A stretch of 64,000 nucleotides of DNA, taken from NCBI GenBank assembly GCA_965116415.1, contig OZ220693.1:556753-620752 (forward strand). The letters run 5' to 3'. A program made the translations under genes and the position numbers. Origin of the DNA: Dehalococcoidia bacterium (GTDB lineage Bacteria > Chloroflexota > Dehalococcoidia > Lucifugimonadales > UBA1123). The notes beneath the pieces are model-generated. The model was not told the DNA's origin and made no database searches. It saw nothing but the letters and a program-made list of their open reading frames with translations. Position 1 is the stretch's first letter; every line of letters begins with the position of its first letter. This document shows positions 925-51,386 of the stretch, piece after piece.

Positions 925-925
925 G

Positions 926-2122: not shown

Positions 2123-2238
2123 CTGCCTACCAGCCCCAAGAATCGCTATGCTAGAATTGTGCGTCTCGTTGCCAGCACGGCTTACATGCTCGTGACTTGG
2201 CGATACCGACAAGACCGACCACTTACAGGAGCACCCAC

Positions 2239-2901
2239 ATGGATGTAGCAACAGTCAAGCTCGACCCCAGGACCGTCACCGGCAAGAAGGTGCGTCAGCT
2301 AAGGCGTCAAGGCGTCATCCCGGTGCACATGTATGGCGCGGACATTCAACCGTCAAACCTTCAGATTGACGGTCGCACCCTGAACAGGCTCCTGCCGCAG
2401 GTCGGTACCAACATCCCGGTCTCAATCGAAGTCGAAGACCTGGACAGCGAGAACATCTGCTTCGTACGAGAGGTACAGCGCCATCCAGTGACCGAAGAAG
2501 TGCTCCACGTTGACTTCCTGCGAGTCGACATCACCAGGACGGTCAGCGCTGAGGTGCCCCTCACTCTCACTGGGACATCTCCCGCGGTGGCAGAGATGGC
2601 TGGGACTCTACTGCAGAACGTCCAGACACTGTCCATCGAGGCACTGCCTATGAACATGCCCGCCGAGATACCCGTCGACATCTCTGTGCTCGTCGACTTC
2701 GATACGACGCTGCAGGTGGGGGACGTCGAAGTGCCCGGGAACGTCACAGTGTTGAATGACCCTGAAGACGCGATCGTACTGGTAGCCCCGCCGCGCCTCG
2801 AGGTCGAGACCTTCGATGACGAGGAACTCGAAGAGGGCGAGGTCGAAGGCGAAGAGGGTGCAGAGGAGTCCGAAGGGGCCTCCTCAGAAGACGAGAGCTA
2901 A
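2239..2901 (+). CDS. rplY: 50S ribosomal protein L25 / general stress protein Ctc form
   Basis: 'TGKKVRQLRRQGVIPVHMYG' is an L25 N-terminus, followed by an acidic C-terminal tail. ATG 2239 is preceded by AGGAG (2226-2230). The track ORF starts at an upstream TTG (2197). Confidence 0.9.
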   Translation: MDVATVKLDPRTVTGKKVRQLRRQGVIPVHMYGADIQPSNLQIDGRTLNRLLPQVGTNIPVSIEVEDLDSENICFVREVQRHPVTEEVLHVDFLRVDITRTVSAEVPLTLTGTSPAVAEMAGTLLQNVQTLSIEALPMNMPAEIPVDISVLVDFDTTLQVGDVEVPGNVTVLNDPEDAIVLVAPPRLEVETFDDEELEEGEVEGEEGAEESEGASSEDES

Positions 2902-2926
2902 ACTCGTACCCACCAAGCGAAGCGGC

Positions 2927-4024
2927 CTAGCTGACCCTGTACTGAGCCAGCGCCTCCTCGTTCAGACTGATACCAAAGCCTGGTCGGTCCGGCGGGCTGA
3001 CGTGCCCATCTTCGACTTCGAGGGTCTCATCGAACATCTGCCCCCACATAGGGTCCGTCGAGTTGCTGTAGTACTCGACCGTTAGCCCGTTCGGGATAGC
3101 GGACACCAGGTGAACGTGAACGTCCTGGTTTCCGTGCGGGGCGATGTGCATGTCGTGCGCCTGCGCGAGTGCGGCAACCTTCATGAACTCCGTGACGCCG
3201 CCCATGATTAGGCCATCGGGCTGAAGTATGTCGCAGCATCGGCCTTCGATGAGCTCTCTGAATCCGTAGCGTGTGTACTCGTTCTCGCCAGTGGCTACCG
3301 GGATTGTCGTTGACTGGCTAACGAGCCTGTGGCCCTCGTAGTCGTCTGGGTTGACCGGCTCCTCGAACCAGAACACGTCATAGGGTTCCATTTTGCGGGC
3401 GATCTCCTGCGCCTGGTAGTGCCTGTAGGCGCAGTTGGCATCGACCATCACCCTGACGTCCGGCCCAACCGCCTCCCGTACTACTCGAACCCTCTCGACG
3501 TCTTCGTTGATCGGCGCGCCGCCGATCTTCATCTTCACAGCCCGAGCGCCCATCTCGATCGCGATGGCCATCTCCTCGGCCAGTTCGCCAAGGCCCTTGC
3601 CCTCCTCGTAGTAGCCTCCAGCGATGTATACCGGCACCTTGTTCGTGTAACCGCCGAGCAACTTATACACCGGCAGTCCGGTGGCCTTGCCCTTCAGGTC
3701 CCACAGTGCGATATCGATGCCACTGATTACACGAGTCGTGATACCTCGCCTGCCGACAAGCTTCGGCTGCCAGAGGTCATCCCATATTCTTTCCGTGTCG
3801 AATGGGTCCTGTCCCACCACAACCTGGGCGAAGTGGTCGAGAATCGCCTTACCGATCTCCTCGGCCCCCTGGACTCCCCCCGCCAGGCCTACACCCGTCA
3901 CGCCCTCATCAGTTTCGACCTTAACGACGTTCAGCCCAGCCGTCGGATACACGTACATCCCGTTTCGGATCGGCTTTGCGCGCTTCCAACGGTAGGTTTC
4001 CATGTTGAGGGACGTGATCTTCAT
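2927..4024 (-). CDS. Mandelate racemase/muconate lactonizing enzyme family protein (enolase superfamily)
   Basis: 'MKITSLNMETYRW', 'GIDIALWDLKGK..YKLLGG', 'VMVDANCAY', 'FEEP' and 'ATGENE' motifs. The internal ATG at 4024 gives the usual MKI N-terminus. The track ORF extends to 4093. Confidence 0.85.
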   Translation of the reverse strand: MKITSLNMETYRWKRAKPIRNGMYVYPTAGLNVVKVETDEGVTGVGLAGGVQGAEEIGKAILDHFAQVVVGQDPFDTERIWDDLWQPKLVGRRGITTRVISGIDIALWDLKGKATGLPVYKLLGGYTNKVPVYIAGGYYEEGKGLGELAEEMAIAIEMGARAVKMKIGGAPINEDVERVRVVREAVGPDVRVMVDANCAYRHYQAQEIARKMEPYDVFWFEEPVNPDDYEGHRLVSQSTTIPVATGENEYTRYGFRELIEGRCCDILQPDGLIMGGVTEFMKVAALAQAHDMHIAPHGNQDVHVHLVSAIPNGLTVEYYSNSTDPMWGQMFDETLEVEDGHVSPPDRPGFGISLNEEALAQYRVS

Positions 4025-4163
4025 TGCGAGTGCTGCTCCCGTTTCACTTCCTGCCAGGTCTGTTCCTGCCCTGTTCCGACGCCGAGTCATCAAACTTCAG
4101 AACCAGGGCGTTCGGGGCGGAGTATAGCATAGCGACTCCAGACAGAACGCGCGGCGAACCCGT

Positions 4164-4192
4164 TTGACACGGTCTGACCGCATACCTATGAT
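4164..4192 (+). promoter_or_regulatory. Candidate sigma70-type promoter TTGACA-N17-TATGAT for the VWA gene
   Basis: TTGACA at 4164-4169, a 17-nt spacer, and TATGAT at 4187-4192, about 50 nt upstream of ATG 4241. Confidence 0.5.
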
Positions 4193-4240
4193 TGCGCCAT
4201 TCTGCCGAGCCAACGGTTCGCTGCATTGGGGGTCCGACCT

Positions 4241-6262
4241 ATGATCGGCTACCGCTACTCCCGCTGGGACGGTTCTCAACATCCCTTCGACTTCGACGAG
4301 GACGACATCCTCGACGCCCTGTCCGAAGACATTATGAATCACGGCGACGTCAACCGTGCCATGCGGAACCTGCTTCGCAGCGGAATGTCAGGCGATCAGG
4401 GCCAGAGAATCACCGGGCTGCGTGAGATGAGGGAAAGACTGAGGCAGATGCAGCAACAGAAGCTCCAGCAGTACAACCTCGAGTCTGCGATGGACGACAT
4501 CAAGGAGCGGCTACAGGACGTTCTCGACACCGAACGAAGTGGTATCGATAGGAGGGTCTCCGAAGCACAGGAAGACTTGGACAACGCCGGCGAGAACAGG
4601 GACGCTCTCCAACCCGCCATGGACCTCCTCGAGTCGCGAGCACAGCAGAACATGGAGAAGCTGGACCAACTGCCGGATAGCCCTGCAGGTCAGATGCGGG
4701 AGTTATCTGAGTACGACTTCATGGACCCGGAGGCACGGCAGAAGTTTGAAGAGCTAATGGACATGCTCCGGCAGCAGATGATGCAGAACTTCTTCCAGGG
4801 CATGAAGGACGCCATCGATGACATGTCGCCGGAAGACATGCAGCGTATGCAGGAGATGATCCAGGCTCTGAACCAGATGCTGCAAGACCGGGCCATGGGT
4901 GAAGATCCCGATTTCGAAGGATTCATGGAGCAATACGGTCAATTTTTCGATCCGGATAGGCCGGCAAGCCTCGACGAGCTGATCGAACGGCTGCAGCAGC
5001 AGATGGCCTCCATGCAGTCCCTGATGGACTCGATGCCCCAGCAGATGCGGGACGAGCTGATGGACATGCTCCAATCTTCGATGGACCAGTCGATGATGGG
5101 CGACCTGTCGGAACTGGCATCACTCATGTATGAGATGTTCCCATTCGATGACATGGCGAACGAGTATCCCTTCATGGGGGATGAGTCAGTCACACTGGAA
5201 CAGGCGATGAGGCTGATGGAACAGCTCCAGGACATGGACAGGCTGGACGATCAGTTCGAGTCGATGACCCGTCAGGGCAACGTCGACGACATCAATCTGG
5301 ACAAAGTTGAAGAGCACCTCGGAGACGAGGCCAGAAGAGAGATGGAGCAGCTTCAACAGCTCGTCAAGCAGCTGGAAGAGGCAGGCTACCTCAGGCGCGA
5401 CGGCGACCGCCTGGAGATCACCGCCCGAGGGATGCGTAAACTGGCCCAGAACGCGCTCAGAGAAGTGTTCTCAGAGATGAACAAGGACAGGATGGGCAGG
5501 CACGAGGTGTTCACAAGGGGCGATGGTGGTGAGTTCACCGGGGAAACCCGGCAATACCAGTTTGGAGACCCGTTCGACATCGACCTGCACAGAACGCTGT
5601 TCAACTCCGTGGTCCGAGGAGGGCCGAATGTTCCCGTGCAACTCTCTGTGGAAGACATGGAGATCCGGCACACGGAGCATTTGACGCAGACGGCAACAGT
5701 CCTGCTGCTGGACCAGAGCAAGTCAATGGGGATGTTCGGGTACTGGGGCCCGGCCAAGAAGGTCGCAATGGCGCTCTACTGGCTCATCCACTCCCAGTTC
5801 CCCAGGGACTACTTCTACCTGGTTGGGTTCTCCGACTACGCCATGGAGTTCAAGGAAGAGGACCTGCCGGAAGTCACATGGAACTACTGGAACTCTGGCA
5901 CCAACATGCAGCATGGACTGATGCTGGCACGCAAGCTGTTATCGCGTCAGAAAGTAGCCAACAAACACGTCATCATGGTGACGGACGGCGAACCCACAAC
6001 GCACCTGGAAGAGGGTCACGCTTACTTCAGCTATCCTCCCAGCTATCGTACGATCGAAGAGACTCTCAAAGAGGTAAAGCGCTGCACACAGGACGGCATC
6101 ACGATCAACACCTTCATGCTCGAAGCCAACTACTACCTGATGGACTTCATCGACCGGCTGACGAAGGTGAACAACGGGCGGGCGTTCTACAGCACTCCCA
6201 ACCAGCTCGGTGAGTACGTCATGGTCGACTACCTGCGGTCCAGGAAGCGCCGGATATCCTGA
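4241..6262 (+). CDS. von Willebrand factor type A (VWA) domain protein with long acidic Met/Gln-rich coiled region
   Basis: The C-terminal VWA fold carries a MIDAS-like motif 'LLLDQSKSM...GTNMQHGL...IMVTDGEPT'. The N-terminus 'MIGYRYSRWDG' is typical of this family. The track start is TTG 4226; ATG 4241 is preferred. Confidence 0.8.
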   Translation: MIGYRYSRWDGSQHPFDFDEDDILDALSEDIMNHGDVNRAMRNLLRSGMSGDQGQRITGLREMRERLRQMQQQKLQQYNLESAMDDIKERLQDVLDTERSGIDRRVSEAQEDLDNAGENRDALQPAMDLLESRAQQNMEKLDQLPDSPAGQMRELSEYDFMDPEARQKFEELMDMLRQQMMQNFFQGMKDAIDDMSPEDMQRMQEMIQALNQMLQDRAMGEDPDFEGFMEQYGQFFDPDRPASLDELIERLQQQMASMQSLMDSMPQQMRDELMDMLQSSMDQSMMGDLSELASLMYEMFPFDDMANEYPFMGDESVTLEQAMRLMEQLQDMDRLDDQFESMTRQGNVDDINLDKVEEHLGDEARREMEQLQQLVKQLEEAGYLRRDGDRLEITARGMRKLAQNALREVFSEMNKDRMGRHEVFTRGDGGEFTGETRQYQFGDPFDIDLHRTLFNSVVRGGPNVPVQLSVEDMEIRHTEHLTQTATVLLLDQSKSMGMFGYWGPAKKVAMALYWLIHSQFPRDYFYLVGFSDYAMEFKEEDLPEVTWNYWNSGTNMQHGLMLARKLLSRQKVANKHVIMVTDGEPTTHLEEGHAYFSYPPSYRTIEETLKEVKRCTQDGITINTFMLEANYYLMDFIDRLTKVNNGRAFYSTPNQLGEYVMVDYLRSRKRRIS

Positions 6263-6278
6263 CTACCTCTGAGAAGGC

Positions 6279-6797
6279 CTAGCCGAATGGCCACCACCAT
6301 CGACGTCGACCACTGCTGGCCTCGCTAGTAGCCTGCTGCACCTGCTGCTGCGTCGGAATGCTGATTGGCTGCCTGCTGAAGAGGCCCATCTGCCCAAGCG
6401 CCCGGTGGAACTGCTCCAACTGAAGAGGCTTCCTGGCGTACCTGCTGGGCGGAATCGAGTACGATTCAAGCAGGCTGGACTCGGCCTCCGTACCCGTGAG
6501 AAGCATCACGGGAATCGAGACCAGATCCTCGTCCTGGTTCATCTCAGCCAGTACCTCAGTGCCGTCCTTCTTGGGAAGTCTGAGGTCGAGAAGGATGAGA
6601 TCAGGCCTGGCGGCGTCTGAATACTCCCCCTCTTTCTTCAGAATGGCCAGGGCAATCTCGCCATCCTCCGCATGGGTAATGTTGGCCCGCTGGTTGGAGC
6701 GCTCGATGGTGTCCTGAGCGAGCCGGAAGTCAGCGGGGTTGTCTTCTACCAGGAGTATCTCGATAGGGCGATCACCAATATCTGTAACCATTGGCAT
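6279..6797 (-). CDS. Stand-alone response regulator receiver (Rcp1/CheY-like)
   Basis: 'ILLVEDNPADFRL...PDLILLDLRLPKKDGTEVL...PVMLLTG' is a receiver domain. There is no output domain, only a ~40 aa tail. Confidence 0.9.
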   Translation of the reverse strand: MPMVTDIGDRPIEILLVEDNPADFRLAQDTIERSNQRANITHAEDGEIALAILKKEGEYSDAARPDLILLDLRLPKKDGTEVLAEMNQDEDLVSIPVMLLTGTEAESSLLESYSIPPSRYARKPLQLEQFHRALGQMGLFSRQPISIPTQQQVQQATSEASSGRRRWWWPFG

Positions 6798-6817
6798 AAC
6801 CTCCTGGGCGCAGAGCC

Positions 6818-8455
6818 CTAACTCGTTACCGGGATGTTGAATCGGAACGTGGAGCCACTCCCTACCTCCGATTCAACCCAGATCCTACCCCCGTGGCGTT
6901 GGGCTATCTTACTACACAGTGCGAGACCTATACCAGTACCGGTATAAGCTGTTCGGGAATGAAGTCGAGCGAACATGCCAAATATCCGTTCCTGGTAGTC
7001 GGGCGCGATTCCAATGCCGTTGTCCTTGACTGAAAACACCCAGTCGGAACCCTGCAGTTCCGCCCAAATCTGAATTCGCGGGTCTGATTCTCCGGTGAAC
7101 TTAAGAGCGTTGCCTATCAAGTTCTGGAACAGCCTTGCAAGTTGGGCCTCATCGCCGTTGACAATGGGTAGCGGCGAGCACTCAACCTTCGCCTTCTGGC
7201 TCCTGATCGCCTCGTTAAGGCTTCCGAGTACCGAGTCCATTATGCGGGTGCAGTTCACGGGCTCCAGTTCCCCACCCTGAGTCCCCACACGCGAATACTC
7301 CAGCAGATCCGTTATCAGACGCTGCATCCTCTCGGCGCCGTCAATTGCGAAGTCCATGAACTCGTGGGCAGTGTCGTCAAGTTGGTCCCCGTAACGCTCC
7401 TTGACCAGACCGACGTACGCCGTGATCGTCCTCAGAGGCTCCTGAAGATCGTGGGATGCAGCATAGGCAAACTGTTCGAGGTCCGAGTTTGATCGAGCCA
7501 GATCGTCCTGCGCTCGGACGATGTCGGCATATAGAAGGGAGTTGGCAATCGCTGGCGTGATTTGGGATGCAATCCGAGAAAGCATCTCCGCGTCCTCGTC
7601 GTCGTACGCGTTATCCAACAGCGAACGAGCATTCAGGATACCAAACAGTTCACCTCTATAGATTAGCGGCGCAAGGACGACCGATGGATACCTGATCAGG
7701 TTCGGAAAGCGCCTTTCCATCTCCGCCGGATCGCCCTGAACTACCATGGCGCTGCGCGACTGTACAGCCTCGTATGTAACCGTTCCCTCCAGCGAAATGA
7801 CCTCTCCTGGATTCCGTCCCTGGATCTGGTCTCCAAGGACGTACGCGTTCGTGAAGGTTTTGTCGTCCAGGTTCACCAAGCTGATTGAGAGTCTGTCAAA
7901 TGGGATTAGGCTGCGGAGCTGCTCACCAAAGCCGGCGTAGACATCATCGATATCGAGGCTTGAGCTGATAATTCTGCCGATCTCTCCAAGTGTCTCGTTC
8001 TGTGTAGCGAGTCTTCGCGCCTCCTCGCCCGCAGCTATCATGGCCGCGTGCGCAGCTTTCATTCGTGTGACATCGGTAGAGTAGATTCGAATGACCAGGT
8101 CTTCTGGTATGTACATGAACTTCTGTTCAAAAGTAGATCCCTGTACGTTCAATTCCCGGGACTGTACGCCGGTACCCTCGTTTATCAAGCGGGCTCGAAT
8201 CGGCCCCATCTGACTGGCCAGAGGATGGGAAGTTCTGGGCGCGTTGGGATCAAGCAACTCTTCGGCTGCCGGGTTCATATAGGTGACGTTGCCGTCGAGA
8301 TCGGTCTCTACAACCGGATTGGGATTATGAAGAGGAAATGACGACATCCTCTCCGACAGCGACTCGGCAGCGGCCATGGTCTGCTCCTCAGACCTGCGAC
8401 CCGCTCCCGCTAGTCGGCGTACGATGCCGGCCAGATGATTTTCTCGACTGTTCAT
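6818..8455 (-). CDS. Sensor histidine kinase (PAS-GAF-HisKA-HATPase_c), cytoplasmic
   Basis: H-box 'ASHDLQEPLR', N-box 'LFQNLIGNALKF', and G-boxes 'DNGIGI' and 'GTGIGLALC'. No TM segment is seen. The gene lies 20 nt upstream of the receiver gene. Confidence 0.9.
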   Translation of the reverse strand: MNSRENHLAGIVRRLAGAGRRSEEQTMAAAESLSERMSSFPLHNPNPVVETDLDGNVTYMNPAAEELLDPNAPRTSHPLASQMGPIRARLINEGTGVQSRELNVQGSTFEQKFMYIPEDLVIRIYSTDVTRMKAAHAAMIAAGEEARRLATQNETLGEIGRIISSSLDIDDVYAGFGEQLRSLIPFDRLSISLVNLDDKTFTNAYVLGDQIQGRNPGEVISLEGTVTYEAVQSRSAMVVQGDPAEMERRFPNLIRYPSVVLAPLIYRGELFGILNARSLLDNAYDDEDAEMLSRIASQITPAIANSLLYADIVRAQDDLARSNSDLEQFAYAASHDLQEPLRTITAYVGLVKERYGDQLDDTAHEFMDFAIDGAERMQRLITDLLEYSRVGTQGGELEPVNCTRIMDSVLGSLNEAIRSQKAKVECSPLPIVNGDEAQLARLFQNLIGNALKFTGESDPRIQIWAELQGSDWVFSVKDNGIGIAPDYQERIFGMFARLHSRTAYTGTGIGLALCSKIAQRHGGRIWVESEVGSGSTFRFNIPVTS

Positions 8456-8507
8456 TTCGGCTCCTGTTTATGGACCGCGAATCGCACAGGCGACGCCTCG
8501 ACCTCAG

Positions 8508-9455
8508 TTACGTACCGAACTTGGCTCCCGGTTTCAGACCGGCCTCTTCCGTCCACTCGGGCGACATGACCTTTCGGCCCCCCGCCGGCTGGACCCTCCC
8601 AACAAGTATGGCGCCTCCATTGGCGGCCACAGTGAAGCCCTCTTCTGAGACCGCCGTCACCTCACCGGCCTGACTGCCCGTATCTCCAACAATCTTGCTG
8701 GCCCTGAAGAATCCCACTGAGGAGCCGTTCAAGGTTGTATTTGCCCCTGGGCTGGGATCGCCTCCTCTGACCAGGTTGTACACTTCATCAACCGTCTGGT
8801 TTTCCCAGTCGATCACCACATCCTCTGCCCTGCACCACCCCTCGTAGGTAGCATCGTCGTGGTTCTGGTCTATTCTGGGCGCGTTGCCTTCACGGACCAT
8901 CTGGACCGATTCGACCATCGCGTCCACACCCATCTGGTACAGCTTGCCGAAGTAAAGCGAGCCGAGCGTGTCGTCAGGCGTGATCTCCACTTCCTTCTGC
9001 AACAGTATTGGCCCTGTGTCCAGTCCCTTGTCAGGCCAGAAGATGGAGAGCCCAGTGACTGTTTCACCCCAGATGATCGGCCAGTTCATGGAGCTGGGTC
9101 CACGGTGCTTCGGTAGAAGCGATGGGTGGTACTGGATAGTCCCGTGAGTCGGCGTTTCCAGTATCTCGTCGGGAACGATGTCGGTTACAAACGCCATCAC
9201 ACAGAGGTCAGCCTTCAGCTCCAGGAAAGCATCGATTGCGACTTTGCGCCGCATCCTCCGAAACTGATGCACAGGTATGTCCCGTTCGACAGCTTCCTGT
9301 TTGATTGGGTCGAACGGCCGACCCTCCCGGTCGGGCGGACAGAACACTCCGACAATGTTCTCACCACTATCAGCCAATGCCGCCAGAACGTCTTTGCCAA
9401 ATGCAGCCTGACCTATCACGGCGACTCGCATGTCGTCAGCCATTTTTGAAACCAT
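8508..9455 (-). CDS. Formyltransferase-family protein resembling the N-terminal hydrolase domain of 10-formyl-THF dehydrogenase / Fmt
   Basis: 'YHPSLLPKHRGPSSMNWPIIWGE..GLSIFWPDKGLDTGPILLQ' is the formyl-transferase core, followed by an Fmt-C-like tail. An alternative start is ATG 9431 (MRVAVIG). Confidence 0.8.
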   Translation of the reverse strand: MVSKMADDMRVAVIGQAAFGKDVLAALADSGENIVGVFCPPDREGRPFDPIKQEAVERDIPVHQFRRMRRKVAIDAFLELKADLCVMAFVTDIVPDEILETPTHGTIQYHPSLLPKHRGPSSMNWPIIWGETVTGLSIFWPDKGLDTGPILLQKEVEITPDDTLGSLYFGKLYQMGVDAMVESVQMVREGNAPRIDQNHDDATYEGWCRAEDVVIDWENQTVDEVYNLVRGGDPSPGANTTLNGSSVGFFRASKIVGDTGSQAGEVTAVSEEGFTVAANGGAILVGRVQPAGGRKVMSPEWTEEAGLKPGAKFGT

Positions 9456-9702
9456 CCAGCCTTTCCCAGGGTATACCCGATGTTTAACCAGAATTTATCA
9501 CTATCTGCGAGTCGGCGGCAATCCTGTGGGGATTAGATGGCCATGGAACGCAAGCCGGCCCTGGCCCGCCGTGAAGTACCCGCAGCCCCATCGGCAACTC
9601 GGCAACACTGATTGACTGAGGTTCAGCCGCATCGCTACAATTTTCAGTAAGGCGCAAGGCGCACTCCAATTCTCATGTTACGCGAAGGAGGGACGCTGTC
9701 AT

Positions 9703-9948
9703 ATGAACTCAAGCTTCATAAGGAAGGTCGAGAAGGCAAAAGACTACGCACTCCAGAAGGAACGGGTAGATTTCCAGAGCTGTACGATCAGGTTCCATGG
9801 AGAGAATAGCGACCACACAATTACTTATGAGGCTGGAAACTGGGCATGTGACTGCGACTTTCTGATTGGCAGAGACACCTGCACTCACATTATGGCACTT
9901 CAGATGATACTTGAAGACATGGTTTCGGAAGTGCCCGCAGTTACCTGA
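9703..9948 (+). CDS. Small SWIM-type zinc-finger protein
   Basis: 81 aa. 'CDCDFLIGRDTCTH' fits the CxCxnCxH SWIM signature. AGGAGGG (9687-9693) lies upstream of the ATG. Confidence 0.7.
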   Translation: MNSSFIRKVEKAKDYALQKERVDFQSCTIRFHGENSDHTITYEAGNWACDCDFLIGRDTCTHIMALQMILEDMVSEVPAVT

Positions 9949-9972
9949 TCACACTTCGTCAGCCAAGAGGAA

Positions 9973-9999
9973 GGGCCACGCTCGGCGCGTGGCCCTTTT
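9973..9999 (+). terminator. Rho-independent terminator after the SWIM gene
   Basis: Stem GGGCCACGC (9973-9981) pairs with GCGTGGCCC (9987-9995), followed by TTTT (9996-9999). Confidence 0.65.
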
Positions 10000-10087
10000 G
10001 CTTTCTACTTTACTCCCTAGCACCGAGGCATCGGCTGCCGCCCTCTACTTACGCGAAGTCGGCAATCACGGGTCCTCCGAGTGTCAC

Positions 10088-11335
10088 TCACTCCATGCGG
10101 CTGAACACCACGCAGGCGTTCTGGCCACCGAATCCGAAGCTGTTTGACAGCACATGTGCTACGTCAGCCTTCCTTGCCTCATTGGGGACGTAGTCGAGGT
10201 CGCAGCCCGGGTCGGGGTGTTGGTAGTTGATCGTGGGGTGAATCAGGCCGTTCTGGATCGACTTCACGCAGGCGACGCCCTCAAGGGCCCCTGCCCCTCC
10301 GAGGGCATGCCCGATCATTGACTTCGTCGAGCTGATCGGGACCCTGTAGGCATCGTCACCGAAGGCCAGCTTGATTGCCATCGTCTCCACCTGGTCGTTG
10401 ATCGGAGTGGATGTACCATGGGCATTTATGTAGCTGATGTCTCCGGGCTCAAGGTCAGCATCCTCGATTGCCCAGCGGATAGCCCTTGCGGCGCCGGTTC
10501 CGTCTTCGTCCGGCTGAACGGCGTGGAAGGCATCTGAAGAGACTCCGTAGCCAGTAACCTCTGCCAGAATCTCAGCGCCCCGGCTTTCTGCGTGCTCCAG
10601 CGTCTCCATGACCAGGACCGCAGCCCCCTCCGAGGGCACAAATCCGTCCCTCTTGGCATCGAAGGGCCTGCTGGCTTTCTCCGGTTCTTCGTTCTGCCTG
10701 CTGAGAGCCTTGATGACGTTGAACCCGCCAAGACCAAGCTGGCTTATTCCTGCCTCACAGCCTCCCCCAAGGATCACGTCAGCAACCCCGCGCTGGAGCG
10801 CGACTGCTGCCTCCCCGATTGCCTGTGTCCCCGCTGCACATGCCGTAATGACGGTTGACGTATATCCCTTGAGTCCATAGATTCGGCTCACATTGGCCGC
10901 AGCCATGTTCGGCAGTATCATCGGAATGAAGAATGGCGACATTCGCATCCCGCCCCTGCGGACGAGAATGCGGGCATTGTCCTCGGTGGTCGGGAAGCCA
11001 CCGTTGCCATTGCCCATGACAACCCCGATCCGGTCCACGTTCTCCTTCGACAGGTTGAGTCCTGCATCCTCGATTCCGGCGGCGGCGGCGGCAACCGCCA
11101 TCTGCGAGAAGCGGGCCATCCTTCGGTGTTCACGACGATCGATGTAGTCGCCCGGATCAAAGCCGGTGACTTCGCCCGAGATTCTGGACGGAAACTCTGA
11201 GGGATCGCAGAGCGTCATCGGCCCGATTCCGGACCTTCCGTTCACGAGATGGTCCCAGTATTCATCTATCGATTCGCCCAAGGGCGTCATCGCTCCCATG
11301 CCGGTGATCACCACGCGAGTTGTGGCGTTCTTCAT
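10088..11335 (-). CDS. fabF: Beta-ketoacyl-ACP synthase II
   Basis: 415 aa. Active-site context 'TACAAG', the 'HGTSTP' and 'GHALGGAG' His motifs, and 'NSFGFGGQNA' at the C-terminus. Confidence 0.95.
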   Translation of the reverse strand: MKNATTRVVITGMGAMTPLGESIDEYWDHLVNGRSGIGPMTLCDPSEFPSRISGEVTGFDPGDYIDRREHRRMARFSQMAVAAAAAGIEDAGLNLSKENVDRIGVVMGNGNGGFPTTEDNARILVRRGGMRMSPFFIPMILPNMAAANVSRIYGLKGYTSTVITACAAGTQAIGEAAVALQRGVADVILGGGCEAGISQLGLGGFNVIKALSRQNEEPEKASRPFDAKRDGFVPSEGAAVLVMETLEHAESRGAEILAEVTGYGVSSDAFHAVQPDEDGTGAARAIRWAIEDADLEPGDISYINAHGTSTPINDQVETMAIKLAFGDDAYRVPISSTKSMIGHALGGAGALEGVACVKSIQNGLIHPTINYQHPDPGCDLDYVPNEARKADVAHVLSNSFGFGGQNACVVFSRME

Positions 11336-11367
11336 GAGGCTACTCTCCTGTTCTATCCGACTGCGCT

Positions 11368-12792
11368 CTAGAGGTCTTCTACTCGTGGCCTGTGTACCGG
11401 CCCTCTCAAGTTTTCATAGATTTCGGGTTCAATGCCTTCGAGTTCTTCGATGGCCTCGGCAGCGAGGGCCAGTGAACCCGAGCAGAGCACCAGGTCATTT
11501 CGTCCGGCCAGCGCTACTGCGTGTCGCAGCCCTTCCGACACTGTCTCAAACTCTCCGGCCAGGTCAAGGCCGAATCTCCTGACCACCTCAGCAGTGACAC
11601 CTGCGTGGGCCGAGCGTGGATGCCTGGACTGCACCGCGACCACTTCCGGAGCTAGCTTGGCGAATGCTTCCAGCATTCCCTCTGCGCTGTGTCCGCCCAG
11701 AGACCCGAAAACTAACACCACTCGACTGGGGTCAATCAGCTGCCTGATTGTGTCGACAAGCCTGCCAACTGAGTACGGATTGTGCGCTCCGTCTACGGTT
11801 ATCGTCTTTCCCTCGCGTTCGTAGACCTGGAACCTCGCTGGCCAGCAGACTTCCCGAACGCCTTGTTCAATGGAATCGTCCGATACGTTGAAGCCCCGTT
11901 CTCGGAGCAACTCAACTGCAGCTACCGCAGTTGCCACGTTCTCAATCTGGTAGTCACCAACCAGAGGTGTCCACAGGCTATATGTGCGCCCATCGCCTAC
12001 TAGCTCAATTGACTGCCCGCTGATGTCTGCGGTCACACTTCGACTATCAAAGTGCTCAGAGGCTTTCAGAATCGGAGAGCCCCTGTCATTCGCAATCTGG
12101 TCAAAGACCTGCATAGCCTCACAGGACCACTGGGGGCCAATCACACAGGGCACACCTGGCTTGATAATCCCTGCCTTCTCGGTTGCGATCTTGGCAATCG
12201 TGTCACCAAGCGTGGCCGCGTGGTCGATGCTAATCGACGTTATTGCCGAAACCTCGGGGGTTACGATGTTGGTGGAGTCCAGCCGCCCTCCAAGTCCAAC
12301 CTCAAGCACCTGGAAGTCGGCGCCGATGTTGCGGAAGTGGACCATTCCCAGAACAGTCATCATCTCGAAGAAGGTAACGCCACCGTATGGTCCGGTTGCC
12401 CCTACATTCTCCACTGCGGGCCAGATCTGAGCGACCAACGCCGCGAATTCCTCACGGGAGATTGGGGCGAGACCCACGCGGACTCTCTCGCAAACAGTAT
12501 GCAGGTGCGGCGACGTGAACAGACCGACCGTATACCCTGCACTTGAAAGTATTGACGTTATGAGAGCGGAGGTGCTGCCCTTCCCTTTGGTTCCAGCGAC
12601 ATGAACTGCAGGCACAGCCCGGTGTACATGGTCCAGGCGTTCGGCGAGCAGACCTACCCTCTCCAGGTGAAAGCCTGAGTGCCCTGGGGAGTGAGTAGAC
12701 CGCTCGAAGTCGGCGAGTCCCATCGCCATATCGACGGCCTGATTGAAGTCAAGTGTCCCTGGAGTAGCTGATGGCATGGAATCGCGATTCAA
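11368..12792 (-). CDS. folC: Bifunctional folylpolyglutamate synthase / dihydrofolate synthase
   Basis: 'VAGTKGKGST' P-loop and 'FTSPHL', with Mur-ligase-type middle and C-terminal domains. Confidence 0.9.
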   Translation of the reverse strand: MNRDSMPSATPGTLDFNQAVDMAMGLADFERSTHSPGHSGFHLERVGLLAERLDHVHRAVPAVHVAGTKGKGSTSALITSILSSAGYTVGLFTSPHLHTVCERVRVGLAPISREEFAALVAQIWPAVENVGATGPYGGVTFFEMMTVLGMVHFRNIGADFQVLEVGLGGRLDSTNIVTPEVSAITSISIDHAATLGDTIAKIATEKAGIIKPGVPCVIGPQWSCEAMQVFDQIANDRGSPILKASEHFDSRSVTADISGQSIELVGDGRTYSLWTPLVGDYQIENVATAVAAVELLRERGFNVSDDSIEQGVREVCWPARFQVYEREGKTITVDGAHNPYSVGRLVDTIRQLIDPSRVVLVFGSLGGHSAEGMLEAFAKLAPEVVAVQSRHPRSAHAGVTAEVVRRFGLDLAGEFETVSEGLRHAVALAGRNDLVLCSGSLALAAEAIEELEGIEPEIYENLRGPVHRPRVEDL

Positions 12793-12887
12793 TTCGTGAA
12801 GAGATCTCTCGCCGCCTTGTACGGATACTGTAGCGCACCGGCAGTTGGGAATCCACCATCAAGCCTTACGCCCGGCACTGTCGACAG

Positions 12888-14285
12888 TTACTCATGACGC
12901 TCCAGTTCGGTGGCAGCAAGATTCAACAGGTCCGGTATGTACGACTCCAGCACGCGCAGGTCCACGGAGGGATACTCCAGGTGCGCGACGATGTTCCTGT
13001 GGTAGTGGAAGGCCCGCTGGAGAGCGGCAATGGGCTTCGCTGCCTCAAACGCCTCTTTCAGGGGGGCAGCAGGCGCAAACTCTCTCCACTCTTCCAAATA
13101 CGCTTCAGCCAGTACCGGAATCCTGGCCACCTGAGGAATAAGCACAGGATCGAAGAGAGGATTGGACACGAACGAGTCCGACCAGTCCATGATGACCGGT
13201 ACTCCATCCCTGACGAACATGTTCCCTGCATCCAGATCGCCGTGAACGAGCGTCCGGGGAAGACCGGCTGAATCTACCAGCTCGCAGTGCTCAGCCACAG
13301 TTTCCAGGTACGGGGTGAGACGCTCCAATGCCCTATCAGTTCGATCAGCTTCGTAACCGAGGGCGAGGCCCCTTGGGTCGTGCGACCACTTCCTGAGCTT
13401 GCTGCCTATCGCTGCCGTGGAACGCCTTTCGAGACCCAGTCCTTCCAGTAGACCAGTTTCTCCCACGAATCCGATTTGCAATCTGGCCAGTCTCCGCATC
13501 GCTTCGCACCACAACTCCACGCTGTCAGTGGCTCCCAAGGTCAGGTCGCCCAGATCATCCATGAGCATCCAGCCGCGGTCCGTGTCCACGGCGGCCATCC
13601 CGGGACTGATGTCAGGAAATCGGGCAGCAACAATGTTGGTAACCGCAACCTCTCGCGAGAAGAACGACGGAGATGCCTTGAAGAAATGTCGCTTCGAGCC
13701 GTACCGGGTTCTGACATCCACACGCACCACACTGGAAATCGACCACGACCGGACGGGGGTAAGCGTAACCTGCGCGTCTGAATACTGTGACTCAATGTGA
13801 CCGGAAACCCACTCTCGCGCTTCGCACCACCACTCTTCAGGCCACTCCCATGGAACGACTGGACTTACCGGCTCGGGGCTGGAAACCCGCTCACATTCCA
13901 TGCGAATAGAGTCGGCCTGCGAGTCGTCAAACCCGCCGAGATTGCAGACCTCAACCGGATCCGTCCAGCGAAAGTCGTCGACCAGTCGTTCGGCGTCGTC
14001 CGACTTCACAGCGGAGTACAGACGAGGCCTTCCCTCTTCCAAGTTACCCTGGTCCAGGCACCTCAGAACTCGGACATCAACCCCTAGCATCCGTTCTGTC
14101 TCGTGAACGAACTCCTCGATCTCGGGGTAGAAGCGATCCATGACGCGCACACTGGGCAGGGACGGAGGATCGCAGGTCGTCACCGCAATCTTCCTGCCAG
14201 CTTGGGAGAAGACTACAGCGAGTGCGGGGATATAGACCTCACCCGACCCGTGGTGGTCAGAGTTCGATGACCCCAACACCGTCAC
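12888..14285 (-). CDS. Phosphotransferase (APH/choline-kinase-like fold) with uncharacterised ~190 aa N-terminal region
   Basis: Brenner motif 'LVHGDLDAGNMF' plus 'IMDWSD' (DFG-equivalent). The GTG start overlaps the upstream CapA-like gene by 29 nt. An alternative ATG is at 14141. Confidence 0.7.
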   Translation of the reverse strand: MTVLGSSNSDHHGSGEVYIPALAVVFSQAGRKIAVTTCDPPSLPSVRVMDRFYPEIEEFVHETERMLGVDVRVLRCLDQGNLEEGRPRLYSAVKSDDAERLVDDFRWTDPVEVCNLGGFDDSQADSIRMECERVSSPEPVSPVVPWEWPEEWWCEAREWVSGHIESQYSDAQVTLTPVRSWSISSVVRVDVRTRYGSKRHFFKASPSFFSREVAVTNIVAARFPDISPGMAAVDTDRGWMLMDDLGDLTLGATDSVELWCEAMRRLARLQIGFVGETGLLEGLGLERRSTAAIGSKLRKWSHDPRGLALGYEADRTDRALERLTPYLETVAEHCELVDSAGLPRTLVHGDLDAGNMFVRDGVPVIMDWSDSFVSNPLFDPVLIPQVARIPVLAEAYLEEWREFAPAAPLKEAFEAAKPIAALQRAFHYHRNIVAHLEYPSVDLRVLESYIPDLLNLAATELERHE

Positions 14286-15585
14286 TCACGCTTACATTCA
14301 CACCGAGGGGTTCGGAGAGCCGCTTCATTCTCTGTAGCGAGTGCTGGCTGGACCGTCCGGTCGCGAGTACCGGTCTGCCCCTCTGCGACCTCGCCTTGCC
14401 GTGTCCCAAGTCGATGGGGTGGAGTTCAATCCGGTCAAGCTCGCCAGACTTAAACTCGCAGCGCGCGACGACGCTGTTCCAGTAGATCGCATCCCCCGGG
14501 AATCCTCTCGTGTCGTTCTCACTCCGCCGATCGTAGAAGTCGGCCGGAGTGCTTTCAGGCCCCAGTCCTACGGACTCAAAGTTGAATGCGGGCTGCCACT
14601 TCACTGTATCGTTCTGGAAGATGAAGTTGCCGAGGCTGTAGAAGATAGGTCTGCCTTCGTAGATCTCCACGGCGCGGGTGATGTGTGGACCGTGACCCAG
14701 GAAGGCATCTGCACCGGCGTTAATGCACGCTCTTGCGAAGGTCTGAAGAAATTCTGGCGGTTCGTCCGTGGTGTCCCCGCTCTCGTGGCAGTGGAACGAC
14801 ACAAACACCCAGTCAGCCATCCGGCTCGCGTCCCTGATCCACTTCAGGTTCTCGTCCATGTCGCGCTGGTTTGGCCTTGTCGACTTGCCAAACTCCTCAC
14901 CCAGGACAAACTTCCTGCCCAGGAAACCGAGCTGAGTGTCGTTGTCCTGCATAACCGTGCCCTTGGGCCTGAACCGCCTCTGCGCCGCGTTGCTCGCCTC
15001 GAATCCCAGGTTGCGGCTGACCCGCTTCATCGAATCGAAAGCCGGACGGTCCACTGTGTAGGTGACGGAGTGGCGAAGCGCGTTGAGTCCAGGCCTGCCA
15101 GGCAGGTCCGGTCGCTGGTCCATCGCCCTGCCCGCCTCGCTGAATGTTGACGACGCGGAGATTAGCGCCACCCTTCCGGCGGACGTGTCCAGGTATCCGG
15201 GAGCGCGGGCCTCGCTCTGGTTGCGTCCCGTGCCCGCGAATGCCATCCCGATGCTCTTCAGGTGGTCGATATTTGTCAGAACGCCGCCTTCGCCATAGTC
15301 GTAGCTGTGGTTGTTGGCGGTCGACACCAGGTTGATTCCGGCCCAGCTAAGCTCTTCGAGGTTTGCCGGATCAGACCCGGTAAATGTGCCGCCAGCCATC
15401 CCCGGAGAGTGCTCGAAGTCGTGCATGAGCATCTCGAGGTTGGTGTAACCGACATCGGCATTTTTGAAAAGGTCGACAAGTGATAGGAATCTCGGCTCCT
15501 TGAACACCGACAGGCGTCGAGTGATCATCGTGTCGCCGCTGGCGACTAGCGTTAGATTCCCGGATTCCGCGTCGTAGAGTGTCAT
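14257..15585 (-). CDS. CapA/PgsA-family (PGA_cap) metallophosphoesterase-like protein
   Basis: 'LVASGDTMITRR', 'GYTNLE', 'STANNHSYDYG' and 'HCHESG...LGHGPH' motifs of the CapA family. Confidence 0.8.
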   Translation of the reverse strand: MTLYDAESGNLTLVASGDTMITRRLSVFKEPRFLSLVDLFKNADVGYTNLEMLMHDFEHSPGMAGGTFTGSDPANLEELSWAGINLVSTANNHSYDYGEGGVLTNIDHLKSIGMAFAGTGRNQSEARAPGYLDTSAGRVALISASSTFSEAGRAMDQRPDLPGRPGLNALRHSVTYTVDRPAFDSMKRVSRNLGFEASNAAQRRFRPKGTVMQDNDTQLGFLGRKFVLGEEFGKSTRPNQRDMDENLKWIRDASRMADWVFVSFHCHESGDTTDEPPEFLQTFARACINAGADAFLGHGPHITRAVEIYEGRPIFYSLGNFIFQNDTVKWQPAFNFESVGLGPESTPADFYDRRSENDTRGFPGDAIYWNSVVARCEFKSGELDRIELHPIDLGHGKARSQRGRPVLATGRSSQHSLQRMKRLSEPLGVNVSVSDGVGVIEL

Positions 15586-15597
15586 AGTTGCAGCGCT

Positions 15598-16161
15598 TCA
15601 GCCTGTTCCTGGGTCGTACTCGGCGGCCAGCATTCCCATTACAACAGAGTTAGCTCTCTCTTCACCGTGTGGCCTGCTCTGACGTAGGGTCCCCTCGTGG
15701 ATGAACCCAACCCGCTCGAACAGCGTGCGAGCCGACAGGTTGAACTCCGGAACATCCACCCACACCCGGTAGAGTCCGTATTCATTGAATGCCAGATCAA
15801 GTGCCGCTCTTATGCCCGGAACGCCGTATCCACGAGTCCACCGGCTGCGTTGTCCCATCAGGATAGAAAGCTGGCCGTCGCCAAGCGCCTCGTCTAATCC
15901 AAGGTGGATCTCTCCGATGTGCTCGCCTTCGTCAGTGTACACGGACATCGTCACATGCGCCGGGTCTTCCAGGGCACGCGCAAATTCCTCATCTGTGGCA
16001 TCCTCCATCTCGGCAGGACGGTAGCCGAGATGGGCCGGTTCTCCATAGGCGTATCGTCCGAACCAGCTATCTGTGGTCTCTTCGTCCTCGAGCCACTCTC
16101 TAATTCTAGTCACGTCTTCCCGCGTGACCCCTCTTAGTGAAACAGTTCGTTGTCTTGTCAC
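15598..16161 (-). CDS. GNAT family N-acetyltransferase (RimJ/RimL-like)
   Basis: 187 aa. 'RGYGVPGIRAALDLAFNEYGLYRVWVDVPEFNLSARTLFERVGF' is an acetyl-CoA-binding core. Confidence 0.8.
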   Translation of the reverse strand: MTRQRTVSLRGVTREDVTRIREWLEDEETTDSWFGRYAYGEPAHLGYRPAEMEDATDEEFARALEDPAHVTMSVYTDEGEHIGEIHLGLDEALGDGQLSILMGQRSRWTRGYGVPGIRAALDLAFNEYGLYRVWVDVPEFNLSARTLFERVGFIHEGTLRQSRPHGEERANSVVMGMLAAEYDPGTG

Positions 16162-16335
16162 AGGAGTCCTCCGTAGCCTGAAAACTAGGAAGATATAGTC
16201 GAATCTTGTCGTGCGAATGTCGTCTACCGCTGGTGACGACGTCCGTGCCAGTATTATACATTGACGAGCGCATATATGGCTTGCAACACCATTTGCCAGT
16301 AACGACCCTGGCTCATCCCGGAGGAAAATCGCACA

Positions 16336-17511
16336 ATGTCAATTCAGCCAGTAGTACAACAGGCGCAGGAGTACATGACCTCCCAGGACGTGGACGGATG
16401 GCTCGTGTACGACTACAGAGGCCTCAATCCCATCCTGTCGGACACGGTCGGACGAGTCGGCCACGTCACAAGACCAGTGTGGCTCTGGATACCACAGAGT
16501 GGAGATCCTCACATGCTGGTCAGCTTCGTTGACCAGAGCAGGTTCACACACCTCGGCATCGATTCAACGCTCTTTGTAAACCGGATCGACATGATCGACA
16601 AGTTGAAGGACAGGCTAGGTGCGTCGGATCGCATCGCCATGGAGTATACCCCCGACGGGGCACTGCCACGCGTGTCTAAGGTGGACGGCGGCACACTCGA
16701 GTTGGTGCGAGGACTAGGGGTAGACGTAGTGTCATCTGCAGATCTTCTCCAGTATGCCACCCAACGCTGGACGGAAGAGCAACTTGCATCTCACATCTTT
16801 GCCGCTGAGAAGCTGACTCAGATCGTGCTGGAGGCTTTTGAGCACATCGGGAAGAGTCTCGACGAAGGCATCACCGAGTTCGATACCGCCGAGTTCATTC
16901 GCAACCGGTTCCGCGACAACGGGCTGGTGGTGACAGACGGCCCCGCAGTCGCCGTCAACGAGCACGCCTCTGATCCCCACTTCGACCCTACTCCTGAGAA
17001 CTCCGTCAGGATCAAGCGCGGAGACTGGGTGCTGATAGACCTGTGGACCCGGCTGCCCGGCGAGGACGACATGTTCGGCGACATCACCTGGACTGCCTAC
17101 GTGGGCGACGACGTTCCTGCCAGACACCAGGAAGTGTTCGACAACGTCCTTGGGGCCCGCGACGCTGCATTGGCCGAAATGGTAACCGCGTTCCAGGAGG
17201 GGCGCACCCTCCAGGGCTGGGAGCTGGACAAGGTGGCCAGGGACTACATTGAAGCTACCGGCTACGGCGAGTACTTCAACCACCGTCTGGGCCACAGCCT
17301 GGGGCGAGAGGTCCACTCCAACGCCGTCAACCTGGACTCGTGGGAGACGTACGACACGCGGCAGCTGATTCCGGGCATAGCCGTGACCATTGAGCCAGGA
17401 ATCTATGTTCCCGAATTCGGTGTGAGGTCAGAGATAGACGTCTTCTACTCAGAAGATGGGCCGCAGGTCACGACAGATATGCAGCGGGAGGTCGTGCTGA
17501 TCGAGAGCTAG
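16336..17511 (+). CDS. M24 family metallopeptidase (Xaa-Pro aminopeptidase-like)
   Basis: Pita-bread metal ligands 'DLW..GD', 'HRLGHSLG', 'VTIEPG' and 'SEIDV'. Confidence 0.85.
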   Translation: MSIQPVVQQAQEYMTSQDVDGWLVYDYRGLNPILSDTVGRVGHVTRPVWLWIPQSGDPHMLVSFVDQSRFTHLGIDSTLFVNRIDMIDKLKDRLGASDRIAMEYTPDGALPRVSKVDGGTLELVRGLGVDVVSSADLLQYATQRWTEEQLASHIFAAEKLTQIVLEAFEHIGKSLDEGITEFDTAEFIRNRFRDNGLVVTDGPAVAVNEHASDPHFDPTPENSVRIKRGDWVLIDLWTRLPGEDDMFGDITWTAYVGDDVPARHQEVFDNVLGARDAALAEMVTAFQEGRTLQGWELDKVARDYIEATGYGEYFNHRLGHSLGREVHSNAVNLDSWETYDTRQLIPGIAVTIEPGIYVPEFGVRSEIDVFYSEDGPQVTTDMQREVVLIES

Positions 17512-23381: not shown

Positions 23382-23420
23382 CCCCCTCTCCCTCAGGGAG
23401 AGGGTTGGGGTGAGGGTGAA
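23382..23420 (+). repeat. Intergenic palindrome + G-tract element, copy 1
   Basis: The sequence is CCCCCTCTCCCTCAGGGAGAGGGTTGGGGTGAGGGTGAA, immediately after the amidase stop. CCCTCTCCCT pairs with AGGGAGAGGG. Near-identical copies are at 44069 and 51348. Confidence 0.85.
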
Positions 23421-23557: not shown

Positions 23558-23632
23558 CGGGGTGTGGCGCAGCGGTAGCGCGCCTGTTTTGGGAACAGGA
23601 GGTCGGCGGTTCGATCCCGCCCACCCCGACCA
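23558..23632 (+). tRNA. tRNA-Pro (anticodon UGG), CCA encoded
   Basis: Hand-folded cloverleaf: acceptor CGGGGTG/CACCCCG, D arm GCGC-AGCGGTA-GCGC, anticodon arm CCTGT-TTTGGGA-ACAGG, variable loop AGGTC, and T arm GGCGG-TTCGATC-CCGCC, followed by A-CCA. Confidence 0.93.
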
Positions 23633-44068: not shown

Positions 44069-44108
44069 CCCCCTCTCCCTTGAGGGAGAGGGCTGGGGTG
44101 AGGGTGAA
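44069..44108 (+). repeat. Intergenic palindrome + G-tract element, copy 2
   Basis: The sequence is CCCCCTCTCCCTTGAGGGAGAGGGCTGGGGTGAGGGTGAA, 15 nt after the gcvPB stop. Confidence 0.85.
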
Positions 44109-44185: not shown

Positions 44186-44647
44186 ATGTCAGAAGTAGGC
44201 CATATGGCCCCAGACTTCACCCTACCCGCCCATAACGGCGAACCGATTACCCTTAGCGACTTCAGGGGAGAGAAGAACGTCGTTCTGTCGTTCCACATCT
44301 TTTCCTTCACAGGTGGTTGAACGCACCAGGTCTCCTCGATGCGTATACACAACGCATCATTCGAGGAGGCTGGCGCCCAGGTACTGGGCATAAGCTGTGA
44401 CTCCCGACCGACACAGGTAGCGTTCGCTTCGTCCTTGGGATCGATCCCATATCCGCTGCTGGCTGACTACTGGCCGCACGGCGGAGTGTGCCAGAGTCTG
44501 GGCATACTGAACGAACAGCTCGGAGCGCCCTTCAGAGCGATCATCATAATCGATAAAGAGGGTGTCATCAGGTTCAAGGAGACCTACACTGCCGCTGGGG
44601 ACGTCGATCCCCGTGCGATCCTGGCAGAGGTCGAGAAGCTCCCATAA
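44186..44647 (+). CDS. AhpE-like 1-Cys peroxiredoxin with in-frame TGA (44318-44320) at the peroxidatic Cys position; candidate selenoprotein
   Basis: Hand translation gives '[31 protein letters not shown][TGA][64 protein letters not shown]'. It is in the same frame as track ORF 44339..44647 and totals 153 codons. Confidence 0.7.
44332..44368 (+). promoter_or_regulatory. Stem-loop 11 nt downstream of the in-frame TGA (candidate bacterial SECIS)
   Basis: The outer stem is 44332-44339 paired with 44361-44368 (8 bp) and the inner stem is 44340-44344 paired with 44352-44356 (5 bp). The apical loop is AUACACA and the 3' bulge is UCAU. Confidence 0.4.
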
Positions 44648-51347: not shown

Positions 51348-51386
51348 CACCCTCTCCCTGAGGGAAAGGGCTGGGGTGAGGGTGAA
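51348..51386 (+). repeat. Intergenic palindrome + G-tract element, copy 3 (between atpG and atpD, antisense to the operon)
   Basis: The sequence is CACCCTCTCCCTGAGGGAAAGGGCTGGGGTGAGGGTGAA, within the 101-nt atpG-atpD spacer. Confidence 0.85.

Follow-up and report, generated by a model that had tools for sequence, protein, structure and literature searches.

The three elements in the window

The window, that is the whole 64-kb stretch of DNA analyzed here, derives from an uncultured Dehalococcoidia bacterium and contains three near-identical elements of about 37 nt at positions 23384, 44071 and 51350. All three were intergenic and located on the + strand. A preliminary description of this DNA had correctly recognized them, with starts (23382, 44069 and 51348) that take in two extra 5' bases. 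Copy 1 (23384..23420, + strand) was arranged as CCCTCTCCC-TCA-GGGAGAGGG-TTG-GGGTGAGGG-TGAA, with the Y-block CCCTCTCCC at 23384-23392, a TCA loop at 23393-23395, the R-block GGGAGAGGG at 23396-23404, a TTG loop at 23405-23407, the third block GGGTGAGGG at 23408-23416 and a lineage-specific TGAA tail at 23417-23420. Copy 2 (44071..44108, + strand) was arranged as CCCTCTCCC-TTGA-GGGAGAGGG-CTG-GGGTGAGGG-TGAA, with the Y-block at 44071-44079, a TTGA loop at 44080-44083, the R-block at 44084-44092, a CTG loop at 44093-44095, the third block at 44096-44104 and the TGAA tail at 44105-44108. Copy 3 (51350..51386, + strand), arranged as CCCTCTCCC-TGA-GGGAAAGGG-CTG-GGGTGAGGG-TGAA, was slightly decayed. 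Its Y-block (51350-51358) and TGA loop (51359-51361) were followed by an R-block (51362-51370, GGGAAAGGG) with a G->A change at 51366, a CTG loop (51371-51373), the third block (51374-51382) and the tail TGAA (51383-51386).

The flanking genes of all three copies were confirmed by Pfam or tRNA calls and their functions were unrelated. The stop of an amidase gene (23381; Pfam Amidase, E = 2e-122) precedes the start of copy 1 by 2 nt, and tRNA-Pro(TGG) at 23558 is located 137 nt past its end, the placement that had been given before. Copy 2 follows the stop of gcvPB (44054), the final gene of a gcvT-gcvPA-gcvPB cluster, at a distance of 16 nt, and an AhpC/TSA gene (44186) begins 77 nt past the end of the copy. 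Copy 3 occupies the 101-nt atpG-atpD spacer inside the atp operon, antisense to the operon. The tRNA-Pro was the sole Rfam match at the gathering threshold.

A pattern with fixed loops matched copies 1 and 3, and 0.00 matches were expected from 100 dinucleotide shuffles. Copy 2 fell outside this pattern because its loop is one base longer. Exact occurrences of GGGGTGAGGGTGA and CCCTCTCCC, 9- and 13-mers of the core, were restricted to the three sites within the window. A translated peptide repeat was ruled out, since all three copies lie outside coding regions. The preliminary description had named, as what would refute it, a motif confined to these sites or one lying inside coding frames; neither was the case, as it is intergenic and enriched in relatives, with up to 20 copies in 21 kb.

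Family membership and predicted triplex architecture

No annotated feature type had seemed to explain the element at first sight. Judged by sequence, the three elements are members of the BoxC / PIT ('potential intrastrand triplex') / TMECO family of E. coli and other bacteria, rediscovered in a new host. The family has been named BoxC as a palindromic repeat of the 1990s (see the survey of Bachellier et al., 1999), PIT element (Hoyne and Maher, 2000, 2002) and TMECO 'triplex motif' (Holder et al., 2015, PMC4666352). The pattern of Holder et al., CCCTCNCCC-N3-6-GGGNGAGGG-N3-GGGNGAGGG (PMC4666352), was matched exactly by copies 1 and 2 and with one mismatch (51366) by copy 3. Identity to individual copies of E. 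coli K-12 (Holder Table 1) amounted to 31-33 of 34-36 nt, and copy 2 was identical to K-12 TMECO no. 2 at 33 of 35 nt. A 46-nt query found matches in 5403 of 5426 complete E. coli genomes, at a median of 16 places per genome; the best matches showed 87% identity over 44 nt.

The three copies share with the E. coli elements the three blocks, the regular expression, similar loops (TGA, TTGA; TTA or NNG), a strictly intergenic and multi-copy occurrence, high similarity among copies and one strand capable of a class-II purine-motif intrastrand triplex. In E. coli, copy number differs sharply between close relatives and the flanks are unusually variable (PMC4666352), and copy number and site occupancy also differed between close relatives of the window. 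For the E. coli copies no link to mobile elements was found, and their neighbour genes are of unrelated functions (Holder et al., 2015, PMC4666352). The differences concern the host, here an uncultured member of the Dehalococcoidia (Chloroflexota), and the arrangement, since the window copies are single and all on one strand whereas inverted type A and type B pairs are frequent in E. coli. In addition, the Dehalococcoidia copies display a lineage-specific conserved head (..ATC) and tail (TGAA) unlike those of E. coli, and in the Dehalococcoidia relatives, unlike in E. coli, the element coexists with a co-varied sister family. The TMECO pattern was reported in 262 proteobacterial genomes (Holder et al., 2015, PMC4666352); in the accessible portions of the supplementary text of that study, five name stems of the phylum Chloroflexota or its genera were all absent. 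A search of the later literature on this repeat family yielded nothing additional beyond Holder et al. (2015) and Kaplan et al. (2016).

The loops TGA, TTGA and TTA are common to E. coli and the Dehalococcoidia, though the triads do not constrain them. Such shared loop sequences hint at a sequence-specific factor or at horizontal transfer, both outside the scope of the explanation preferred below. That a 35-nt sequence is about 90% identical in E. coli and an uncultured Chloroflexota sharpens the old question of why this triplex-capable sequence is kept and multiplied across phyla, and by which mechanism. For annotation, the sites should be labelled as BoxC/PIT-type repeats and not as novel regulatory elements or G4 switches.

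The third block GGGTGAGGG is a mirror image of the R-block GGGAGAGGG in which each A is faced by A or T. Mirror symmetry of this sort is the hallmark of a purine-motif triplex. It had been overlooked in the preliminary description, where the third block was read as a G-tract tail and not as a mirror repeat of the second block. With the + strand unpaired, CCCTCTCCC would form Watson-Crick pairs with GGGAGAGGG across the 3-4-nt loop, and GGGTGAGGG could then fold back over the 3-nt loop and dock as a purine third strand in the major groove, antiparallel to the purine block. The resulting reverse-Hoogsteen triads would comprise seven G*G:C, one A*A:T and one T*A:T. In copies 1 and 2 all nine Watson-Crick pairs and all nine purine-motif triads could be formed, and copy 2 was extendable to 10. 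The perfect hairpin described earlier therefore holds for these two copies and not for copy 3, in which the G->A change at 51366 breaks one Watson-Crick pair and one triad and leaves eight of each.

A class-II triplex scanner (nine triads, at most one mismatch in the pairs and at most one in the triads) detected exactly three sites in the window, namely the three copies, and none in 20 shuffles. A chance origin of the three copies was ruled out by these shuffle controls (0.00 pattern matches, no triplex sites). The window and 80 atpD loci together provided a sample of 1.49 Mb selected without regard to the repeat; in it, 41 of 47 perfect 9-bp homopurine/homopyrimidine hairpins were accompanied by a triad-compatible third block. 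Among the purine blocks that were not mirror-symmetric, 20 were antiparallel-compatible and 0 parallel-only.

Oligonucleotides of the E. coli element form a triplex with a Tm of 70-82 C, and their NMR spectra show 18 imino signals, as expected of a triplex, and lack the pattern of a G4 (Holder et al., 2015, PMC4666352). The window copies differ from these oligonucleotides by few bases, mostly in the loops, so that the fold observed in vitro for the near-identical E. coli sequences may be expected for them. PIT elements blocked DNA polymerase in vitro and had neither promoter nor terminator activity in E. coli (Hoyne and Maher). DMS footprinting in living E. coli did not detect the triplex, and the duplex wins when the complementary strand is present (PMC4666352). 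The elements resemble the mirror repeats of H-DNA in the mirror symmetry of the purine block, in the reverse-Hoogsteen triads and in a tie to genetic instability. However, H-DNA involves a long duplex mirror repeat and supercoiling, while here one strand has all the blocks and needs only strand separation.

Sister families and competing readings

The best relatives in the genome collection showed 94-95% AtpD identity and only ~80% nucleotide identity in atpD. In a metagenome scan with AtpG, no relative exceeded 68% identity, one 34-residue partial match aside. In the nearest relative (L122, OY764155.1), 20 perfect triplex motifs were detected within 21.4 kb (807-13989) and could be divided into two families. 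Family A, of the window type, had six copies, and family B, with the blocks CCTTCCCCC / GGGGGAAGG / GGATGGGGG, had 14. Both families have the head AA[A/G]TC and the tail TGA[A/T] in common and their loops are similar. The first loop is TTGAY or TCGAY in family B and TCA, TCT, TGA or TTGAT in family A, and the second loop is YTA in nearly all copies of both. Family B differs from family A by six coordinated substitutions, with one T.A*A triad moved, and keeps all nine pairs and all nine triads.

The two families were also followed in IMG/VR contigs. In hairpin-only scans, 52% of the family A and 45% of the family B hairpins among the matches listed were accompanied by the cognate third block, figures that are not independent evidence because the three-block unit is copied whole; only comparisons between families count. 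Chimeras joining the hairpin of one family to the third block of the other were absent from 606 and 322 strand-sides among the IMG/VR matches listed. The sequences favour mirror symmetry as the conserved property, and so the triplex competence of one strand rather than G4 potential.

The preliminary description had proposed a hairpin/G4 switch, in which a quadruplex of the four G-tracts competes with the hairpin as a regulatory toggle in DNA or RNA. Its reading of the G-tracts as G3-N3-G3-N2-G4-N3-G3 was correct. The G3+N1-7 rule is formally satisfied in all three copies, which are the only canonical quadruplex matches on either strand of the 64 kb. The switch itself was not new, since the E. 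coli elements had been published as HPG1/HPG2 'G-quadruplex-hairpin-duplex switch' motifs (Kaplan et al., 2016, PMC5100583). That study viewed the very same elements from the G4 side, as four G-tracts after a C-rich tract, intergenic and often paired; the interpretation differs, not the object. The CD spectra of E. coli HPG2 differ between K+ and Mg2+/Li+ at similar melting temperatures, suggesting a G4 in K+ (PMC5100583), which conflicts with the NMR result for the E. coli element. An analogous repeat of Methanomicrobiaceae passed from triplex to G4 after annealing in K+ (PMC8044849). The Methanomicrobiaceae repeats, which combine a potential quadruplex sequence (PQS) with a C-tract, are likewise intergenic and form a hairpin, an antiparallel triplex or a G4 according to S1 probing and CD, but they are archaeal, carry the C-tract 3' of the G-runs in the reverse arrangement and are unrelated in sequence (PMC8044849).

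As a conserved fold, however, the G4 was not supported. Family B (GGGGGAAGG-YTA-GGATGGGGG) is found in the same spacers and flanks as family A and retains nine of nine triads; with no more than two G3+ tracts, it falls short of the canonical quadruplex rule. The triplex is favoured over the quadruplex because this sister family keeps all nine triads without four G3 tracts. The third block obeys a mirror symmetry that a G4 does not require, the NMR signals of the E. coli element are those of the triplex (PMC4666352), and at copy 3 and at the atp copies of the nearest relative the mRNA carries the C-rich and not the G-rich strand. A hairpin/G4 toggle therefore appears very unlikely, and family B together with the mirror symmetry favours the triplex.

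Outside the three elements, no canonical PQS was present on either strand of the window, compared with about 4.9 in mononucleotide shuffles. This suggests PQS avoidance elsewhere in the window.

In the nearest relative, 16 of the 20 copies are located in or beside the atp operon, all antisense to it. The spacers between atpB and atpC hold 14, a further one lies shortly before atpB, and two lie shortly past atpC. The atpG-atpD spacer of this relative contains a five-copy tandem array of family B with a 63-nt period. Transcripts of the atp operon, which is essential, must therefore run through the copies.

This distribution bears on an RNA-level role, in which a GC-rich transcript hairpin would terminate transcription, or would protect or process 3' ends in a REP-like manner and so set relative mRNA levels. 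Such a role would suit copies 1 and 2, which are in sense orientation 2 and 16 nt past stop codons, and the predicted RNA hairpins are stable (-19 to -21 kcal/mol); being palindromic, the hairpin is predicted for the atp transcript as well (-16.7 kcal/mol). However, the hairpins of copies 1 and 2 were unremarkable against shuffled controls (z-scores of -0.6 and -0.9), although minimum-free-energy folding models no triplexes, and G/C-rich sequences fold well even when shuffled, which keeps the z-scores modest. None of the copies is followed by a U-run on the strand of the upstream gene (tails TGAATAG and TGAATAC; TGTAAGG in the sense of the atp mRNA). Promoter and terminator scans gave nothing relevant on the transcribed strands at the three copies. 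The terminator role put forward in the preliminary description thus found no confirmation, with no T-run at any copy and copy 3 within the atp operon, and PIT elements lacked terminator activity in E. coli (Hoyne and Maher). An RNA-level role would also leave the conserved, co-varying third block unexplained and has to accommodate the 16 copies that the nearest relative tolerates in or beside an essential operon. We regard it as improbable.

Recognition of duplex DNA by a conserved nucleoid or regulatory protein would account for the extreme conservation of block and loop sequences across phyla. However, the neighbour genes are functionally unrelated both here and in E. coli, the orientation relative to genes varies, and families A and B share their context despite six differing positions in the blocks, which speaks for structure rather than sequence as what is recognised. 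A sequence-specific binding site is the least probable of the readings considered, and hardly to be expected.

Two further features of the nearest relative were observed beside the repeats. Four tandem HicB-like (UPF0150) antitoxin genes are located between atpA and atpG (6488-8720), an insertion absent from the window, and each is followed by a short reading frame that, by eye, is a putative HicA. At 13153-14893 there are two adjacent paralogues of the Uma2 family (putative restriction endonuclease), with a triplex motif before each.

Probable gain and loss, and strand orientation

Taken together, we consider it likely that the three elements are structured BoxC/PIT-type repeats, triplex-capable, selfish or neutral, and without a dedicated regulatory role at the three sites. 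Repeats of this kind would be gained, tandemly amplified and lost in intergenic spacers and would mark indel-prone DNA; they are probably not gene-regulatory signals at these sites.

Copy number in 80 related loci ranged from 0 to 20 per ~21 kb. Across 69 related loci, the median atpG-atpD spacer measured 56 nt, compared with 101 nt in the window, which corresponds approximately to the median plus one 40-nt element. In most related loci this spacer was empty, and four lineages contained different variants. One of the loci (L125) had a different variant in the opposite orientation, and another (L189) a decayed copy of family A. In E. coli, the gldA-yijF spacer of one strain (L121, 1460-1640) contains an inverted BoxC pair, while K-12 and Eco889 (L440/L441) have a REP/BIME pair instead with identical conserved boundaries. 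The BoxC pair and the REP pair are alternative repeat cassettes at this site. These occupancy patterns fit a REP-like repeat that is gained and lost.

A second repeat, CGTTCGTCCTGAGCCTGTCGAAGGAC, was noted in locus L142 (OZ244251.1), where triplex motifs are embedded in its arrays (13800-17500).

For the mode of spread, and only for this part of the explanation, a REP/MITE-type non-autonomous element mobilised in trans by a RAYT/HUH-like enzyme that recognises the folded single strand has to be considered. The elements are short, GC-rich, palindromic intergenic repeats tolerated inside operons, as REP/BIME are, and spacer occupancy differs between relatives. Outside the three blocks, families A and B have a conserved head and tail in common, the BoxC and REP pairs of gldA-yijF interchange at the same site, and the strand-orientation bias described below recalls single-strand transposition. 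However, Pfam searches of 47 window proteins (46 ORFs of at least 180 aa and the AhpC/TSA product) and of 10 ORFs of the L122 locus revealed no transposase, integrase or HUH gene. The RAYT/TnpA(REP) transposase that the preliminary description had proposed to look for was thus absent from the 47 proteins of the 64-kb window. The flanks of 24 aligned copies contained neither terminal inverted repeats nor target-site duplications, only the short head (..ATC) and tail (TGAA). Unlike REP/BIME and REPIN-RAYT systems, the elements have no GTAG-type head and no RAYT was found among the tested proteins, and they contain an obligatory third block that REPs lack. In the window there was no RAYT gene among the 47 proteins, no 5' tetranucleotide head and no inverted doublet, the copies being single and in one orientation. 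The tandem arrays, with their 63-nt periods, resemble products of slippage or unequal recombination, and Holder et al. found no mobile-element link in E. coli (PMC4666352). Of the earlier REP/MITE-like assignment, the dispersed intergenic repeat with a GC-rich hairpin that is enriched in relatives was upheld, while the RAYT/MITE features (no transposase among the 47 window proteins, no terminal inverted repeats or target-site duplications) were not. Mobilisation by such an enzyme is unlikely in our view.

Matches were very common in IMG/VR contigs (at least 120 in each scan), and 622 records of a plasmid database, mainly from Proteobacteria, were also matched. We make no claim of plasmid carriage from the latter, since some are chromosomal fragments such as an eccDNA with entC-fepB. 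Cultured phage genomes gave 4 partial matches in 50,697 records, so that the element is essentially absent from them. Placement 'inside ORFs' of over half of the IMG/VR copies was rejected as an artefact of spurious long ORFs that a crude ORF caller predicts in GC-rich DNA. Some IMG/VR contigs, such as L267, L202 and L055, contained many copies, with up to eight hairpins in 10 kb among the matches listed; these copy-rich contigs may be host DNA or prophage flanks.

The orientation of the repeats was compared with GC skew. The + strand of the window has a negative GC skew throughout, and all three G-rich elements (3/3) are located on it. In the nearest relative (1-21395) the skew on the atpD-sense strand was +0.08 to +0.25, unusually strong compared with ~0.04 in the window, and 20 of 20 copies were on the C-rich strand, opposite the atpD-sense strand. 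With the elements masked, the triplex strand was on the C-rich strand in 124 of 172 IMG/VR loci among the matches listed (L001-L419), and in 67 of the 74 listed loci with an absolute skew of at least 0.1 (p = 2e-13); these loci may be phylogenetically clustered, and the direction of replication is deduced from the skew alone. Orientation agreed with the majority coding strand in only ~60% of the IMG/VR matches listed, and where skew and coding strand disagreed, skew predicted 22 of the listed loci and the coding strand 8. In E. coli K-12, 13 copies were on the leading and 10 on the lagging strand (counted from Holder Table 1), showing that the bias is not universal.

The preference of the triplex-forming (Y-R-R) strand for the C-rich strand is possibly new. 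The C-rich strand presumably corresponds to the lagging strand and would thus serve as the template for leading-strand synthesis. The uniform orientation suggests that folding on single-stranded DNA might have consequences in vivo. That the repeats fold in living cells and that this folding shapes their orientation is a tentative proposal, and we consider it rather doubtful. If true, orientation together with the three-way covariation of the blocks across several families would provide evidence from genomes that intrastrand purine triplexes are relevant in vivo, and would supply what footprinting in E. coli failed to show. BoxC-like elements would then constitute a class of selfish repeats defined by structure and present in several bacterial phyla. 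Only the orientation bias and the block covariation go beyond the literature consulted. The co-varied sister family and the bias relative to GC skew make the relevance of the triplex in vivo testable by comparative genomics and simple biophysics.

An observation of a different kind concerns the AhpC/TSA peroxiredoxin ORF next to copy 2 (44186-44647, + strand). It contains an in-frame TGA (44318-44320) at the expected position of the catalytic Cys (..SFTGG*THQ..), and when Cys was substituted for the TGA, the Pfam domain spanned the stop codon (E = 5e-32). A selenocysteine peroxiredoxin with a bacterial SECIS element is the probable reading, but the TGA could also mark a pseudogene or stem from a sequencing error. 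A 7-bp hairpin is located 20 nt downstream of the in-frame TGA.
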